Below are positions 54,338-61,058 of a stretch of 64,000 nucleotides of DNA, piece after piece. Under the pieces are notes generated by a model. That model searched no databases, had not been told where the DNA came from, and was given only the letters and a program-made list of their open reading frames with translations. The translations under genes were made by a program, and so were the position numbers. This DNA comes from an uncultured Thiotrichaceae bacterium (GTDB taxonomy: Bacteria; Pseudomonadota; Gammaproteobacteria; SZUA-229), in NCBI GenBank assembly GCA_964466455.1, contig CAYXNL010000003.1, positions 7,268-71,267 on the forward strand. Reading direction: 5' to 3'. The stretch's first letter is position 1. Every line of letters begins with the position of its first letter.

Positions 54338-54766
54338 ATGACTGCAAAAAAAACGATTAGCATTGCCGCCCGGCTGGCCGGGATAGGTATTGAAACCATA
54401 CGCTACTATCAGCGTACTGGATTAATTGAGGAACCGGAAAAACCGGTTTCCGGTTTTCGCGTGTATCCACAATCGACGATTAATCGTATCCGCTTTATTC
54501 AACGCGCTAAAAAGCTGGGGTTCAGTCTGGCGGAAATTACTCGTTTACTGAAACTTGATGACGGTAACTGCGCACAAACCCGTGCCATTGCTGAACACAA
54601 ATACGCATTAATTACCGAAAAGATAAAAGATTTGCAAATCATGGCGACTGTACTTGAAAAACAGATCAATAACTGCAAGATAAATATGGACATAGATCAT
54701 TGCCCACTAATATCTTCCCTGGCTGACACTCAGGAAACAGCAAAAAAGCTGCTGACAGATAACTGA
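54338..54766 (+). CDS. MerR-family heavy-metal-responsive transcriptional regulator (ZntR/CadR/PbrR-like)
   Basis: 142 aa; N-terminal wHTH (ISIAARLAGIGIETIRYYQRTGLIEEPEKPVSGFRVY), dimerisation helix, and Cys78/Cys113/Cys122 at the positions of the metal-binding triad of PbrR/CadR/ZntR. Confidence 0.8.
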   Translation: MTAKKTISIAARLAGIGIETIRYYQRTGLIEEPEKPVSGFRVYPQSTINRIRFIQRAKKLGFSLAEITRLLKLDDGNCAQTRAIAEHKYALITEKIKDLQIMATVLEKQINNCKINMDIDHCPLISSLADTQETAKKLLTDN

Positions 54767-56051: not shown

Positions 56052-57620
56052 TTGTACGATTTATTACACCAGCGCCTGGCAAAAATCCGCCAGTCGGGTA
56101 AAGAAGAAACCCTGTCCGGTTCAAAAATCGGACTGGAAAAAGAAAGCCTGCGGGTATCCCCTGATGGCGGACTTTCACAACACCCTTCGCCTGCGGCATG
56201 GGGTTCGATGCTAACCAATCCCATGATTACCACCGACTTTTCAGAAGCACTGGCAGAGTTAATCACGCCGCCATGTGATTCAGTTAATGAGGTAATTCAG
56301 TCACTCGATGATATTCAGCATTTTGTCTATCGCCACCTCGATAATGAAATTCTCTGGGCAACCAGTATGCCCTGCGTGGTTGCCGGTGAAACCAGTATTC
56401 CACTGGCTCGTTATGGACGTTCTAACGCCGCACAGATGAAAACAATTTATCGCAAAGGGCTGGGGCTGCGTTACGGTCGCGCCATGCAGGTCATTGCCGG
56501 GGTACATTTTAATTATTCTTATGCTGAAGAATTCTGGTGCTGTTTTCAGCAACTGGAACGAGGCTCGGGTCAACTACAGGATTTTATTTCCGATCACTAC
56601 ATGGGGCTGGTCAGGAATCTGCTGCGTTATGGCTGGTTAGTCCCCTACCTGTTCGGTGCCTCACCCGCTGTATGTAAATCTTTTCTTAACGGACAAAAAA
56701 CACTGTTACAGGAGTTTAATGATAATACCTGTTATGAACCCTACGCCACTTCATTGCGTCTGGGTAATATCGGTTATCAAAATAACAAGGAAGACCTGGC
56801 AGGCATTAAGGCCTGTTATGATTCCGTAGACTGTTATGCGGAAAGTCTGCAATGCGCCATTCGTACCCCGAATCCAGCGTACCAGAAAATCGGCGTAAAG
56901 GTAAACGGTGAATACCGCCAACTGAACACCAATATTCTACAGATAGAGAATGAGTATTACAGTACCGTGCGCCCGAAACCGCTGCTGCACACCAATGAAA
57001 GCCCGGCTTATGCCCTGAAAAAACACGGCATTGCCTATATCGAACTACGTTCCGTTGATGTTAATGCCTATGACCCACATGGCATTCATTCCGAGCAGTT
57101 ATATTTCCTCGAGGTTTTTATGCTGTTTTGCCTGTTGCACGACAGCCCACCACTTAGCAGCAACGAAATCAATACCATTGACCAGAATCTACTGCTGGTT
57201 GCTCATCAGGGTCGCAAACCCGGGCTTACCCTGCAACGCAATAACCACCCCATCAACCTGCAACAGTGGGCAGGTGAGTTATGCCGTGAAATGAAAACCG
57301 TTGCAACATTGCTGGATCAGGCAAATTTCTGCGAAAACTATTTTTCCAGTGTAAAGGCTCAGATTGCCAGCGTTTATGACCCGGATCTAACACCTTCGGC
57401 AAGAATGCTGGCTGAAATGCGTGAACATGAAGAGGGCTTTTATCATTATGCCAAACGTATGTCACAGCATCATTATCTGTATTATAAAAAACAATCCCTC
57501 CCTGCCGAGAAAATTCGTTTTTTTAAACAGTTGGCTGAGCAGTCCATACAACAGCAACAACAGATAGAACAGACCGACCAGATCAGTTTTGATCAGTATC
57601 TTGCCCGGTACTATGCCTAA
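56052..57620 (+). CDS. gshA: glutamate-cysteine ligase (gamma-glutamylcysteine synthetase)
   Basis: Strong alignment with E. coli GshA (LEKESLRV / ITTDFSEALAELITP / MPCVVAGE / YLFGASPAVCKSFL / LRLGNIGYQN / YIELRSVDVN). A TTG at 56052 gives an N-terminus the same length as E. coli GshA (which itself uses TTG) and avoids overlap with DUF1015. The alternative ATG at 56004 overlaps DUF1015 by 29 nt; the ORF-track frame begins at 55986. Confidence 0.85.
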   Translation: MYDLLHQRLAKIRQSGKEETLSGSKIGLEKESLRVSPDGGLSQHPSPAAWGSMLTNPMITTDFSEALAELITPPCDSVNEVIQSLDDIQHFVYRHLDNEILWATSMPCVVAGETSIPLARYGRSNAAQMKTIYRKGLGLRYGRAMQVIAGVHFNYSYAEEFWCCFQQLERGSGQLQDFISDHYMGLVRNLLRYGWLVPYLFGASPAVCKSFLNGQKTLLQEFNDNTCYEPYATSLRLGNIGYQNNKEDLAGIKACYDSVDCYAESLQCAIRTPNPAYQKIGVKVNGEYRQLNTNILQIENEYYSTVRPKPLLHTNESPAYALKKHGIAYIELRSVDVNAYDPHGIHSEQLYFLEVFMLFCLLHDSPPLSSNEINTIDQNLLLVAHQGRKPGLTLQRNNHPINLQQWAGELCREMKTVATLLDQANFCENYFSSVKAQIASVYDPDLTPSARMLAEMREHEEGFYHYAKRMSQHHYLYYKKQSLPAEKIRFFKQLAEQSIQQQQQIEQTDQISFDQYLARYYA

Positions 57621-57636
57621 CAGTAACCATAACCCA

Positions 57637-58041
57637 ATGCGCCAGATATTTTATGACTGCTGGCAATTAAAACACAGCGGGCAGCCACTGGACGCTATGC
57701 AATCCATCATTGCCACCATTATTGAACTTCATCCCGAATACCACGCTTTACTGGAAGATCCATCTTCTCTGGAAAAAGACTTTTCTGTTGAAAATGGGGA
57801 AAGTAATCCATTTCTACATTTAAGCATGCATATTGCTCTGCACGAACAGCTTAGCGGCAACCGACCTGCTGGAATAAAAAATATATATCAGCAACTGTGT
57901 TATCAGCACGGTAGCGCACATGATGCAGAACACGCCATGATGGAATGTCTGGGAGAAAGCCTCTGGCAGGCACAACACAATGGCTGTACACCGGATGAAA
58001 CAGCCTATCTACACTGCCTTAAAAAGTTGGAAAAGCGCTGA
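57637..58041 (+). CDS. DUF1841 family protein
   Basis: MRQIFYDCWQLKHSGQPLD...EYHALLEDP...ENGESNPFLHLSMHIALHEQLSGNRPAGI...AEHAMMECLGESLW matches the DUF1841 consensus. Upstream in-frame ATGs at 57613 and 57589 (ORF-track start) are alternatives. Confidence 0.7.
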   Translation: MRQIFYDCWQLKHSGQPLDAMQSIIATIIELHPEYHALLEDPSSLEKDFSVENGESNPFLHLSMHIALHEQLSGNRPAGIKNIYQQLCYQHGSAHDAEHAMMECLGESLWQAQHNGCTPDETAYLHCLKKLEKR

Positions 58042-58050
58042 CTAATGTAG

Positions 58051-58188
58051 AGATACTAACAGGATGGATGAGAGGGATACTTATTGTTCAAGACCGTCAG
58101 CCGCAGGGATGCGGGTGTCGAGCTTACATGGAGGTACTTACAGCGTGTCCTGAACAATAAGTATCCCTTTTACCCGTTTCAATAATAT
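58051..58188. repeat. MITE/REP-like palindromic element, long copy (21-bp terminal inverted repeats GGGATACTTATTGTTCAAGAC / GTCCTGAACAATAAGTATCCC)
   Basis: Left part agatactaacaggatggatga and right part cttttacccgtttcaataatat are shared with the short copy at 25390-25448. Internal nested hairpin CCGCAgggaTGCGG. Confidence 0.7.
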
Positions 58189-58343
58189 ACATTTACTGCA
58201 AAAAATATTATTTTTTTATTCCAATTGACTGAACTTGCTATTTTCCTGCTTGTCTTTTTTTGTCGGAACCGTGTAGACTGAAATTATTCAGGTTTCATTC
58301 CCCCATCCTGGCGGATGATATTAATTTTTCTGGAGAAAAACGA

Positions 58344-58685
58344 ATGGTAAATAAAACGACGAAAAGAACCCTTTCTGTGGCAATAGGAGCCGCCTTTGCT
58401 GTAGCAATGATGACCGCACCAATAGCAAAAGCAGATACCAATCCATTTGGAATGCAAAACCTGAAAACCAGTTATCGGGAAATTGCAAGTAACAAATGTG
58501 CTGCCAGTATGAAGAAGCAGACCAGTGGCAAGTGTGGTGCTGCAGAGTTGAAGAAAAAAGAAGAAATGAAGAAAATGGAGATGATGAAAAAGGAAGGTAA
58601 ATGCGGTACCAATAAAATGAAAAAAATGGAAAAAGAAGGTAAATGTGGCGCCAATAAAATGAAAAAAATGGAACATGAAGGTTAA
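58344..58685 (+). CDS. secreted Met/Cys/Lys-rich repeat protein with tandem EGKCG...MKKME modules; putative periplasmic Cu/soft-metal-binding protein or RiPP-metallophore-like precursor
   Basis: GGAG at 58332-58335 then ATG at 58344. Sec signal peptide MVNKTTKRTLSVAIGAAFAVAMMTAPIAKA|DT. Mature region contains four KCG/EGKCG units interleaved with MKKME(M)MKK Met-rich motifs. The last two modules are a 42-bp tandem DNA repeat (58596-58679). Strong terminator follows. Confidence 0.7.
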   Translation: MVNKTTKRTLSVAIGAAFAVAMMTAPIAKADTNPFGMQNLKTSYREIASNKCAASMKKQTSGKCGAAELKKKEEMKKMEMMKKEGKCGTNKMKKMEKEGKCGANKMKKMEHEG

Positions 58686-58715
58686 AAACAGAACATACCC
58701 TTTTCTTTCTTTAAA

Positions 58716-58741
58716 AGCCCCGTAACTCCGGGGCTTTTTTA
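58716..58741 (+). terminator. Rho-independent terminator after the EGKCG-repeat gene
   Basis: AGCCCCG-taactc-CGGGGCT followed by TTTTTTATT. Confidence 0.8.
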
Positions 58742-58931
58742 TTACAGAGAATAACTGAAAAAACACGCGAAAAATAAAAAAGTGGTTACAATATAGTTAT
58801 CACGATATTGTAACCACGATATAGAGCAGGGTATTGTATACCTCCCCGTGAACCTGTTCGATTGTACCATAACGATAAGGAGACACTGATTAATCATGAG
58901 TCTCCATAATTAAGATACCGGGGCCACCCTT

Positions 58932-60428
58932 ATGTTTTCAGCAGAATCATTCGGAATAGAAGTACTCGCATGGATGGCAACAATATTTTTCATCACCATC
59001 AGCCTGCTACTTATTTTTCTTGTTGGTGTTTACATTGCGGATGTTACTCAGACCAAACAGGCCATCCGCCGGAACTATCCAGTTATTGGTCATTTTCGTT
59101 ATTATTTCGAACACCTCGGTACTTTTTTCCGTCAGTATTTTTTTACCATGGATCGGGAGGAAATGCCCTTTAATCGCGCCCAGCGCTCATGGGTATATCG
59201 TGCAGCAAAAAATATCGAGAATACCGTTGGTTTCGGTTCTACACGTGACCTACGCCCGGTCGGTACCATTTTATTTATTAATACCGCCTTTCCAACACTT
59301 GGCAGGGAGGCGGTTGACGCCAAACCGGTTATTATTGGTGGGGATTCTGCCCGACAACCCTTTACAGCCTGTTCTTTTTTTAATATTTCCGGGATGAGCT
59401 ATGGCGCCATTTCCAAACCTGCAATACAGGCTTTATCCTATGGTGCAAAAAAAGCCAATGCCTGGATGAATACCGGTGAAGGCGGTCTGTCTTCCTACCA
59501 TCTTGAAGGTGGTGCTGATATTGTGTTTCAGATTGGAACAGCCAAATATGGTGTCAGAGACGAAAACGGCAAATTATCTGATGAAAAACTAACTAAAATT
59601 GCTGCACACGAAAATGTCCGCATGTTTGAAATAAAGATGTCTCAGGGTGCAAAACCCGGTAAAGGCGGCATTCTACCGGGAAAAAAAGTAACCGCAGAAA
59701 TAGCTCGTATCCGCGGTATACCTGCTGGTGAAGATTCTATCAGCCCCAATCGCCACCCTGAAATCAGAACAAATGATGACCTTATTGATATGATTAATCA
59801 TATACGGGAAGTTACCGGCAAACCCGTTGGTTTCAAGGCCGTACTGGGAGATGACATCTGGTTAAAAGAATTTTTCCAGGCGGTTAACAAACGCGGAAAA
59901 CATAGCGCTCCTGATTTTATTACCATCGACAGTGCCGATGGCGGTACGGGCGCTGCACCGGTGAGTCTGATGGATTATGTTGGTCTGCCGATTCAGGAAA
60001 GCCTGCCTATCGCGATTGACAATATTGTACAGGCGGGTCTGCGTGAACGCATCAAGGTAATTGCCTCAGGCAAATTAATTAACCCGGCCGAAGTCGCCTG
60101 GGCATTATGCGTAGGGGCTGACTTTATTAGTTCAGCACGTGGCTTTATGATGTCTCTGGGATGCATTCAGGCTTTGCAGTGTCATCAGAATACCTGCCCA
60201 ACCGGTATTACCACTCATGATAAAAAATTACAACACGGCCTGGTTGCTGAGCAGAAATCTTCACGTGTATGTAACTATATTAATAATATCCGTTATGAAG
60301 TGGGTCTTATCGCCCATTCCTGTGGTGTCTCTAATGCCAGGAAACTGAGCCGATGTCATGCCCGCATTGTCCAGCAAAATGGAAAGTCAATAACACTGAA
60401 AGACCTGTACCCCGGTAAACAGGAATAA
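58932..60428 (+). CDS. FMN-binding glutamate synthase family protein (GltB domain-2-like), membrane-anchored
   Basis: 498 aa; N-terminal TM helix (IEVLAWMATIFFITISLLLIFLVGVYIA) then glutamate-synthase central domain motifs (ISGMSYGAIS, GEGG, QGAKPGKGG, IDSADGGTGAAP, ASGKLINP) and a C-terminal Cys cluster. Confidence 0.8.
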   Translation: MFSAESFGIEVLAWMATIFFITISLLLIFLVGVYIADVTQTKQAIRRNYPVIGHFRYYFEHLGTFFRQYFFTMDREEMPFNRAQRSWVYRAAKNIENTVGFGSTRDLRPVGTILFINTAFPTLGREAVDAKPVIIGGDSARQPFTACSFFNISGMSYGAISKPAIQALSYGAKKANAWMNTGEGGLSSYHLEGGADIVFQIGTAKYGVRDENGKLSDEKLTKIAAHENVRMFEIKMSQGAKPGKGGILPGKKVTAEIARIRGIPAGEDSISPNRHPEIRTNDDLIDMINHIREVTGKPVGFKAVLGDDIWLKEFFQAVNKRGKHSAPDFITIDSADGGTGAAPVSLMDYVGLPIQESLPIAIDNIVQAGLRERIKVIASGKLINPAEVAWALCVGADFISSARGFMMSLGCIQALQCHQNTCPTGITTHDKKLQHGLVAEQKSSRVCNYINNIRYEVGLIAHSCGVSNARKLSRCHARIVQQNGKSITLKDLYPGKQE

Positions 60429-60525
60429 TAATTAACCGCACCGCTCATGGTATGATACTACCAGATGGTAGAATCCCATCGTACATCGCAAAACCAGAAC
60501 TTATTTCTATGTTAACAGTATAGTA

Positions 60526-60768
60526 GTGATGAAATATCGAATAATAACAGGCATCATGCCCGTTCTATTGTTGTGTTCCACCATGATTACGGCCTGCAGC
60601 ACACAGGACTGGTACCAGGGAGCGCAGTCTATGCACGAGTTGTCATGCCAGAAATTACCAAAAGCTGAATACTATGACTGTATGAAGGAATCGGATAAAA
60701 GCTACAATAGTTACAAAAAAAATCGTGAACAGTTAAATAAACCCAACCCAGATATTAAAACACGCTAG
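60526..60768 (+). CDS. small lipoprotein, hypothetical
   Basis: 80 aa; signal peptide with lipobox TMITAC|S. Confidence 0.5.
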   Translation: MMKYRIITGIMPVLLLCSTMITACSTQDWYQGAQSMHELSCQKLPKAEYYDCMKESDKSYNSYKKNREQLNKPNPDIKTR

Positions 60769-60974
60769 TCAATTTTTTTATCCCTGAATATTCCTCTGAA
60801 AAAAATTAGTCCCGGACAAATTCCAGTTATCGCGGAGAATATAAAAAATATTGCCGGTAAATAAAGTACCCAGTTAACCACATCAAAACCGGTTAACCAT
60901 ATTCCCAGCCATAAAATTGCACCCACAAACAGAAAAAATGCTTTCATTGCCGGATCCATTTTATCCATCATCAA
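60765..60974 (-). CDS. DUF2892 (YgaP C-terminal-like) small membrane protein
   Basis: 69 aa; two TM helices and the conserved GxCP motif (ITGICPGLIFF). Confidence 0.6.
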   Translation of the reverse strand: MMMDKMDPAMKAFFLFVGAILWLGIWLTGFDVVNWVLYLPAIFFIFSAITGICPGLIFFRGIFRDKKID

Positions 60975-61058
60975 TACCTGCTATGTATCAGTAGAGAAGA
61001 TCACAATAAAATAAATTTACAGAAAATTCAACAACCACCCGTCTTTTCCACATATTTT

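Follow-up and report, generated by a model that had tools for sequence, protein, structure and literature searches.

The DNA analysed here, called the window, is a stretch of 64,000 nucleotides (nt) of contig CAYXNL010000003.1 (positions 7,268 to 71,267) from an uncultured Thiotrichaceae bacterium. On its forward strand it carries a small gene for a putative secreted peptide that is rich in lysine and methionine and contains repeated EGKCG-type motifs. We read this gene as a precursor of the HvfA/oxazolin family whose maturation genes, hvfB (MNIO) and hvfC (DUF2063 partner), were deleted from their usual place, and we put the probability of this reading at about 0.8. The mechanical open reading frame (ORF) extends from a TTG at 58260 to 58685; the start conserved among relatives is the ATG at 58344, which gives a product of 113 amino acids (aa). 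An earlier sequence-only reading had recognised the gene; its product length of 114 aa has to be corrected. The gene and its signals comprise the following features:

58231–58256, forward strand: promoter motif of the extracytoplasmic function (ECF)/sigma-E-like type, GAACTT-N15-GTCTT, aligned in five loci.
58272–58282, forward strand: conserved TGTAGACT(CAG)-like block containing TAGACT (58274–58279), at the same distance from GTCTT in the window clade and its relatives.
58332–58335, forward strand: ribosome-binding site GGAG, 8 nt ahead of the ATG; the GGAGAAAAA block preceding the ATG is invariant in 5/5 aligned related loci.
58344–58685, forward strand: coding sequence of the putative HvfA/oxazolin-family (EGKCG-type) precursor, 113 aa, stop included, supported by homologues and by a ratio of nonsynonymous to synonymous substitution rates (dN/dS) of 0.09–0.24 against two orthologues.
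58344–58433, forward strand: Sec signal peptide, aa 1–30, with predicted cleavage between AKA and DT, read by eye and conserved across the alignment.
58434–58475, forward strand: conserved N-terminal part of the mature peptide, DTNPFGMQNLKTSY, with the family motif NPF-x4-L-x2-GY, from a 35-sequence alignment.
58491–58682, forward strand: core, aa 50–113, made up of NKCA, SGKCG, a helix-prone Lys/Glu/Met spacer and two 14-residue modules EGKCG-xN-KMKKME-x.
58586–58682, forward strand: 42-bp tandem DNA repeat that codes for the final two modules (Tandem Repeats Finder: period 42, 2.3 copies, 89% matches, score 150).
58713–58744, forward strand: intrinsic terminator with a 10-bp stem (6 G-C pairs), a 6-nt loop and a T-run (folding free energy −18 kcal/mol, z −4.25 against shuffles).

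The signal region, read by eye, has a basic n-region, KTTKRT, then a hydrophobic core of 19 residues and the cleavage site, a layout common to all aligned homologues, and the AlphaFold2 model of the precursor places a helix at residues 5–23, within this region. The mature peptide of 83 aa contains 21 Lys, 10 Met, 10 Glu, 8 Gly, 4 Cys and 1 His. Its Cys residues are at positions 52, 64, 87 and 101, and the corresponding motifs are NKCA (50–53), SGKCG (61–65) and two copies of EGKCG (84–88 and 98–102). MxxM occurs at 75, 78, 92 and 106, with one MEH besides. Among 35 aligned homologues, N33, P34 and F35 were invariant, L40 and Y44 nearly invariant, and C64, G65, C87, G88, C101 and G102 invariant or nearly so; the NPF-x4-L-x2-GY motif was found in all 80 genome loci fetched. 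The first Cys motif is KCA in the window precursor and KCG in at least 90% of its relatives. The terminator hairpin proper occupies 58713–58738, with the T-run after it; a simple terminator scanner missed it, probably because the stem extension absorbs the T-run. The Sec signal with its cleavage site, the own ribosome-binding site, the strong terminator and the tandem repeat of the last modules had all been described in the sequence-only reading and hold; the repeat-rich character of the mature part also stands, its size being 83 aa and not about 85. An antisense ORF of 160 aa (58284–58766, reverse strand), rich in Phe, Leu and His, spans the whole precursor gene and seems to be a side effect of a sense strand rich in AAG, GAA and ATG.

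A phmmer search among 5.8 billion proteins returned 42 homologues of the precursor (E 1e-62 to 1e-3), and 42/42 have a signal peptide, then the NPF..L..GY block and then repeated (E)GKCG. Several sources label these relatives merely 'low-complexity protein'. Scanning GTDB, with each species represented by one genome, gave 161 tblastn-confirmed loci for relatives; 80 of them were fetched. Since the 161 relatives and the database homologues share the same architecture, the precursor is not a chance ORF. The best match in the GTDB representatives scanned was 51% identical. Two orthologues are much closer: P0002, from locus L011, is 88% identical pairwise (81% by BLASTP), and P0163, from locus L182 (metagenome-assembled genome (MAG) GCA_054033155.1), differs by seven substitutions.

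The likeness to HvfA, pointed out in the sequence-only reading, was borne out by the search against precursor families: the only NCBIfam matches of the window precursor were two HvfA models, NF050137 and NF050188, both below their cut-offs, orthologues pass, and hvfB and hvfC (hvfBC) follow the gene in relatives. With NF050188, the H. influenzae HvfA equivalog model, the precursor scored 26.3 bits against a cut-off of 95 and is thus not an equivalog. The cut-off of NF050137, the family domain model ('KCGExKCG_twice'), was passed by the orthologues P0002 (22.2 bits), P0003 (29.1), P0004 (41.0) and P0005 (26.2). P0011, which lies beside intact hvfBC, gave no NF050137 match. As these orthologues pass and the window precursor and P0011 do not, the threshold cuts through the Met-rich subclade. 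Judged by homology, the window precursor is a member of the HvfA/oxazolin family of MNIO-modified precursors ('Buf_EGKCG', EGKCG-type captophorin), at the edge of the reach of the hidden Markov model (HMM). Pfam, searched with E up to 10, gave noise only (DUF7155 at 14.6 bits, Peptidase_S49_N, EMC3) and no DUF2282 match, and neither Pfam nor NCBIfam gave a match to Met/His-rich metal-binding families of the SilE/PcoE type.

The catalogue of 'Buf_EGKCG/oxazolin' precursors comprises about 2,000 members, whose core clusters combine the precursor gene with genes for MNIO, DUF2063 and DoxX; precursor genes standing alone are already on record (PMC12452194). Within the family the window precursor has the lowest Cys count among full-length relatives (4 Cys, 3 KCG). 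We rejected this as a sign of decay, because P0011, with hvfBC intact beside it, likewise carries no more than four Cys. The idea that Met-richness compensates for the loss of the maturase was also rejected as a general rule, since Met-rich precursors adjoin hvfB: Thiohalobacter-type precursors with 10–13 Met do so, and P0003 (locus L118), with three EGKCGANKMKKMEQEG modules nearly the same as the EGKCGANKMKKMEHEG of the window, lies beside HvfB, so that Met-rich modules of the window type do occur next to the enzyme. In eight relatives (L038, L045, L048, L072, L076, L087, L089 and L090) an EF-hand-like insert (DADGDGxxTxxEF) separates EGKCG blocks, and hvfBC still follows. Fusions of Buf_EGKCG with EF-hand domains have been reported before (PMC12452194).

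The gene order in the window is MerR-like regulator, DUF1015, gshA, DUF1841, precursor, Glu_synthase-family gene, two small ORFs, a 146-aa gene (reverse strand), TetR (reverse strand) and ABC transporter. Three features flanking the precursor bear on the loss of the maturase genes and on the wider system:

57613–58041, forward strand: DUF1841 gene, immediately upstream of the precursor (PF08897, 179.5 bits).
58932–60428, forward strand: membrane-anchored Glu_synthase-family gene (PF01645).
60429–61058, no strand: syntenic site of hvfB and hvfC in relatives; the window holds only two small ORFs here.

Among the 61 related loci with at least 2.5 kb of downstream flank, HvfB (MNIO) was encoded directly downstream of the precursor in 55, with HvfC nearly always next; the remaining six had neither hvfB nor hvfC within about 10 kb on either side. 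The relatives L007 and L008 (precursor P0011) come from the same metagenome series. They share the flanking genes of the window at 65–84% aa identity and have the order Glu_synthase – MNIO (PF05114, 293 aa) – HvfC (PF09836/PF22106, 266 aa) – 146-aa gene – TetR. Outgroup loci (e.g. L019, L021, L022, L032, L040, L041 and L057) show DUF1841 – precursor – Glu_synthase – HvfB – HvfC – 146-aa gene – TetR. In a sister lineage, the 1,780-bp contig of L118 carries DUF1841 – P0003 – HvfB, and this HvfB is 87% identical to that of L007.

At the corresponding site of the window, a small lipoprotein-like ORF (MMKYRIITGIMPVLLLCSTMITAC..., 60526–60768, forward strand) and a YgaP-like membrane ORF (60765–60974, reverse strand) occupy the place of hvfB and hvfC. 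The same pair of ORFs is also seen in L011 and partly in L182. In a tblastn search of the whole window with HvfB and HvfC of L007, the best E was about 1, and no remnant was found. Profile HMMs built from 142 HvfB, 126 HvfC and 98 DoxX sequences were run against 458 six-frame segments of the window of at least 50 aa; no HvfB or HvfC was found (best E 0.38) and no DoxX (best E 0.35). These searches agree with the sequence-only reading, which had noted that the window lacks MNIO and DUF2063 genes. Contigs with the identical protein (L001) run about 4.7 kb beyond the window, and hvfB, hvfC and DoxX are absent there too. The genes hvfBC are missing from the same site in two further lineages, L011 and L182. 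In L182 the Glu_synthase-family gene has in addition lost about 1,150 bp internally, leaving a C-terminal remnant split over two frames. Because outgroup loci carry hvfBC, parsimony makes their presence the ancestral state of the clade, and we infer that hvfB and hvfC were deleted from their ancestral place in the window lineage.

Selection on the orphan precursor was estimated as dN/dS by the Nei–Gojobori method, pairwise among the window, L011 and L182. The ratio was 0.20 for the window and L011, 0.09 for the window and L182, and 0.24 for L011 and L182, at synonymous divergence (dS) of 0.33–0.37; neighbouring genes gave similar values (0.05–0.27). All four Cys and every (E/S)GKCG pentapeptide were unchanged in the three alleles (window, P0002 and P0163), residues just after the EGKCG pentapeptides varied, and the sole indel was in frame. 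By these substitution patterns the precursor is under purifying selection in three lineages sharing the hvfBC loss. The variable module number expected from the tandem repeat was seen only between distant relatives; the three window-type alleles have constantly two terminal modules.

The upstream region also appears to be maintained. Three blocks are common to five aligned upstream regions: CTGAACTT, then CTTGTCTTT 15–16 nt on, then TGTA(G/C)ACT about 18 nt further. The first two fit a promoter of the ECF/sigma-E type, the −35 element containing AAC and the −10 element GTC. The pattern AACT[TA]-N14-16-GTCnT was present within 200 nt upstream of the precursor in 42/77 related loci; of random 200-nt windows drawn from these loci, 0.8% contain it. 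On the two strands of the 64-kb window taken together it occurs a single time, at 58232. Distant relatives (Thiohalobacter and others) have AAACTTT-N-GGTCGTA with the same spacing and lack the TAGACT block. In the window clade and its relatives TGTAGACT/TGTACACT is kept at equal distance from GTCTT; the form TGTAGACTCAG / TGTACACTCAG, about 18 nt past the ECF-type −10, is found in the window clade and nearer relatives (L016–L034, L047 and L057–L060), not in distant ones. This block could be a second −10 of the sigma-70 type, an operator or an element of the 5' untranslated region. The sequence-only reading had proposed a promoter TTGTCT-18-TAGACT. Both of its hexamers are conserved in relatives; as a sigma-70 promoter it matches only 8/12 consensus positions, below the scanner threshold, and TTGTCT (58250–58255) is more likely a −10 than a −35 because it overlaps the −10 of the ECF-type motif. 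ECF sigma factors control operons of the hvf type in H. influenzae (RpoE2) and Neisseria (SigE) (PMC7907618). The conserved ECF-type motif of the precursor family is not mentioned in PMC12452194 or PMC13097082. Further downstream, at 58280–58330, the window, L011 and L182 have an extra leader stretch of about 17–50 nt with a small hairpin CATCCTGGCGGATG, absent from L007, L013 and L118. No Rfam family matched this stretch, and a search of 57900–59000 with E up to 1 gave no score close to a gathering threshold; no leader or riboswitch was thus found.

Two neighbours accompany the precursor more widely. A DUF1841 gene lies at most 1.5 kb upstream on the same strand in 45/75 related loci (e.g. 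within L016–L095) and may be an unrecognised part of the precursor system. It stays with the precursor where hvfBC sits elsewhere (L059) or is lost (the window). The Glu_synthase-family gene separates the precursor from HvfB in 11 loci and follows HvfBC in 6, and it accompanies DoxX-HvfB-HvfC in MAG NORP24, which suggests an accessory redox role; copies are at L007:10816-12321, L180:5482-7005 and L182:10511-10946. Neither the DUF1841 neighbour nor the Glu_synthase-like gene is mentioned in PMC12452194 or PMC13097082.

The MerR-family regulator at 54338–54766 scored 144.7 bits on the MerR model TIGR02051 (cut-off 150.85). Its Cys78, Cys113 and Cys122 are spaced by 35 and 9 residues, the spacing of what we take to be the Hg-binding Cys82, Cys117 and Cys126 of MerR. 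In the window clade this gene lies directly upstream of DUF1015-gshA-DUF1841; in L007 a CDF cation-efflux gene takes its place. Neither mer transport genes nor mer reductase genes were seen. Inverted-repeat scans for a MerR-type operator in the upstream regions of the MerR-like gene and the precursor gave AT-rich palindromes only, and this candidate was rejected.

By analogy with characterised family members, the precursor would be transcribed under an ECF sigma factor answering envelope, oxidative or metal stress, exported by Sec and cleaved after AKA, and the mature peptide would act as a periplasmic buffer for Cu (or for Ag and further soft metals). The ligands would be the Lys-Cys-Gly/Ala sites and, in the window subclade, also the MKKM/MEH methionine–histidine clusters. 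Modified members of the family bind Cu (PMC11252979, PMC13097082), and the modification is now assigned as 5-thiooxazole (PMC13097082; bioRxiv 10.64898/2026.07.17.739211), which lowers the mass by 4 Da for each Cys and absorbs at about 302–305 nm. For a copper or oxidant role the locus provides context only, namely the ECF-type motif and, upstream, gshA and the MerR-like regulator with three conserved Cys.

As hvfBC are gone and the precursor is constrained, the peptide is either matured by enzymes encoded elsewhere or works unmodified. The sequence-only reading had named these two alternatives, and both are kept, with more weight on maturation in trans. That an MNIO–HvfC pair encoded outside the window still matures the precursor has, in our estimate, a little less than an even chance. 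Orphan precursors in several lineages (L023, L059 and the Methylophaga-like group L080/L085/L086/L091) favour it. In MAG NORP24 the precursor and DUF1841 lie on NVWZ01000008, and Glu_synthase-DoxX-HvfB-HvfC lie on NVWZ01000051 with no precursor ORF; this split locus is the one case that could be checked, with binning error as a caveat. The enzyme pair FonBC accepts Gly or Ala after Cys, and the K-C-G and K-C-A contexts of the window precursor are within this tolerance (PMC13097082). The full conservation of the EGKCG pentapeptides in the three alleles also fits continued enzyme recognition.

Several points weigh against reading the gene as an HvfA/oxazolin-family precursor with deleted maturation genes, or against its maturation in trans. 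The MNIO and DUF2063 partners are missing near the window precursor, contrary to the pattern of the family. The NF050137 score of 18.7 bits (E 0.001) is 0.8 bits short of the cut-off of 19.5. The peptide has three GKCG, two of them EGKCG, and one KCA, and no tandem EGKCGEGKCG. AlphaFold2 with the 35-sequence alignment gave no usable fold (pLDDT 50.7, pTM 0.19), and a model of such low confidence lends the precursor no structural support. Metal binding, export and regulation are presumed for the window precursor by analogy. Protein and metagenome searches found no maturase attributable to the window organism. In the protein search the sister HvfB gave a 100% self-match and then nothing above 84%, the two best non-self matches coming from other samples and belonging to canonical clusters. 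In the metagenome scan, which covered the best 80 HvfB matches sharing 8-mers in samples that are complex metagenomes, the HvfB contigs of the same sample series each carried their own canonical precursor. Since HvfB is 80–84% identical even in distant relatives, identity is unable to assign an HvfB to an organism. The deletion in the accessory gene of L182 fits erosion of the whole pathway. Finally, FonBC left a single-repeat peptide unmodified in vitro (PMC13097082), which favours an unmodified function.

Such a function would make the peptide an MNIO-independent metal sponge, exported as an unmodified, disordered or helical Lys/Glu/Met-rich binder of Cu(I)/Ag(I) in the manner of SilE/PcoE. 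Its main ligands would be Met thioethers, and the four Cys would either contribute further ligands as thiols or pair in two disulfides. Met thioethers are oxidation-tolerant ligands, used by periplasmic Cu(I)/Ag(I) proteins. We regard this explanation as possible, with a probability clearly below one half. It would account for the absence of hvfB, hvfC and DoxX from the window, the loss of hvfBC from the same locus in L011 and L182 and the deleted Glu_synthase-like gene in L182, next to a precursor kept intact by purifying selection over dS of about 0.35. The 10 Met, four MxxM and one MEH of the mature 83 aa, the unusual KCA in first position and the lack of a tandem double motif, in view of the FonBC result, also speak for it, and the Met-rich modules predate the loss (P0003 beside HvfB), so that the enzyme could have become dispensable through a function based on Met. 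The complete conservation of EGKCG in the three alleles, while adjoining residues vary, is hard to reconcile with it; the maturase of an orphan precursor can lie on another contig, as in NORP24; no sequence match to any Met-rich metal-binding family was found; and free thiols are in general unstable in the periplasm. A scenario in which hvfBC were deleted in the clade's ancestor and the precursor outlived its maturase, because pre-existing Met-rich modules let it buffer Cu(I)/Ag(I) in the periplasm without modification, and was hence kept by selection, appears to us rather unlikely.

The missing maturase genes, the lowest Cys count among full-length relatives, the score just under the family threshold and the accessory-gene deletion in L182 could also mark a decaying, non-functional leftover of the lost hvf cluster. 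We consider this very unlikely, because the three alleles are intact, with low dN/dS at dS of 0.33–0.37, a single in-frame indel and all Cys kept, because the promoter motif, ribosome-binding site and terminator are conserved, and because P0011 beside intact hvfBC is equally poor in Cys and gives no match at all with the HMM. It is still harder to believe that the product is a generic Lys-rich, low-complexity secreted or nucleic-acid-binding protein with incidental Cys and no metal binding. Its composition (21/83 Lys), the name 'low-complexity protein' given to relatives and the AlphaFold2 result without a fold would suit such a protein; the linkage to MNIO/HvfC in 55/61 loci and the lack of matches to any other family argue against it, and so do the Cys positions, which are the conserved feature of the family, so that the non-conserved Cys considered in the sequence-only reading did not arise. 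The remaining probability goes to some other explanation.

Among the characterised systems closest to the window gene is HvfA of nontypeable H. influenzae, a Sec-exported peptide of 95 aa. HvfB (MNIO), together with its partner HvfC, modifies the six Cys of its AEGKCGEGKCG repeats, and the product binds copper (PMC11252979). HvfA (NTHI1441, in an hvfABC + DoxX operon) and the window precursor (113 aa) are both small Sec-type precursors with Cys in (E)GKCG, and HvfB and HvfC (DUF2063) are encoded immediately downstream of the relatives of the window precursor. HvfA is under RpoE2 (PMC7907618), and the window gene has an ECF-type promoter motif. Two N-terminal Cys of HvfA outside its repeats may correspond to C52 and C64. 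The two differ in that the repeats of HvfA are three tandem AEGKCGEGKCG units carrying six modified Cys, whereas the window precursor has a single GKCG per 14 residues, KMKKME spacers and four Cys, and no hvfB, hvfC or DoxX gene in the 64-kb window. With Buf_EGKCG/FonA (fontiphorin) it shares repeated Lys-Cys-Gly, a signal peptide, hosts among the Pseudomonadota and the occurrence of stand-alone precursors (PMC12452194, PMC13097082); the types described have 17-residue double-motif repeats and EF-hand fusions (PMC12452194), in contrast to one EGKCG per 14 residues and Met clusters in the window.

The bufferins Buf1 (DUF2282) and Buf2 (Buf_6/12Cys) are likewise periplasmic, MNIO-modified, Cu-binding RiPPs (peptides made on the ribosome and modified after translation) with the same MNIO/DUF2063/DoxX core genes, and sizeable fractions of their precursors are also unlinked from MNIO genes (PMC12452194). 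The window precursor differs from them in lacking DUF2282 or any other Pfam match and in its Cys pattern and fold. Methanobactin (MbnA/MbnBC) is comparable in its MNIO, its partner protein and its Cys-derived heterocycle and thio ligands for copper; MbnA is a short leader–core peptide with a dedicated transporter that serves copper acquisition, whereas the window precursor has a Sec signal and repeats and probably a role in detoxification. SilE/PcoE and the Met-rich regions of CusF, CopC and CueO are periplasmic Cu(I)/Ag(I) binders without Cys-Gly repeats or MNIO ancestry. The window precursor resembles SilE/PcoE in its expected periplasmic location, in MxxM/MxH clusters within helix-prone Lys/Glu-rich sequence and in likely disorder when metal-free; no homology between them was detected, and the resemblance is compositional and concerns a possible mode of action only.

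The oxazolin/fontiphorin/bufferin family has been characterised only recently; its presumed role in many Pseudomonadota is protection from copper and oxidative stress, and in H. influenzae it is a virulence factor. The orphan state of the window precursor is not new in kind. Specific to this locus are the clean evidence for a deletion of hvfBC at a conserved site and the later maintenance of the precursor by selection. Part of the Met-rich subclade falls below the curated HMM cut-offs, and such genes will therefore go unnamed in annotation pipelines. At the level of the family, the ECF-type promoter motif, the DUF1841 gene, which in the gammaproteobacterial group is almost always directly upstream, and the embedded Glu_synthase-like gene provide new leads. 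The window locus represents a clean natural experiment, in which the flanking genes are as in relatives, the maturase pair is removed and the precursor is constrained in three lineages. It makes directly testable whether MNIO modification is obligatory for EGKCG precursors or whether split clusters are matured in trans. If the precursor did outlive its maturase, a captophorin precursor would have turned into an MNIO-independent metal binder, and installation of the thiooxazole would not be obligatory in the family.

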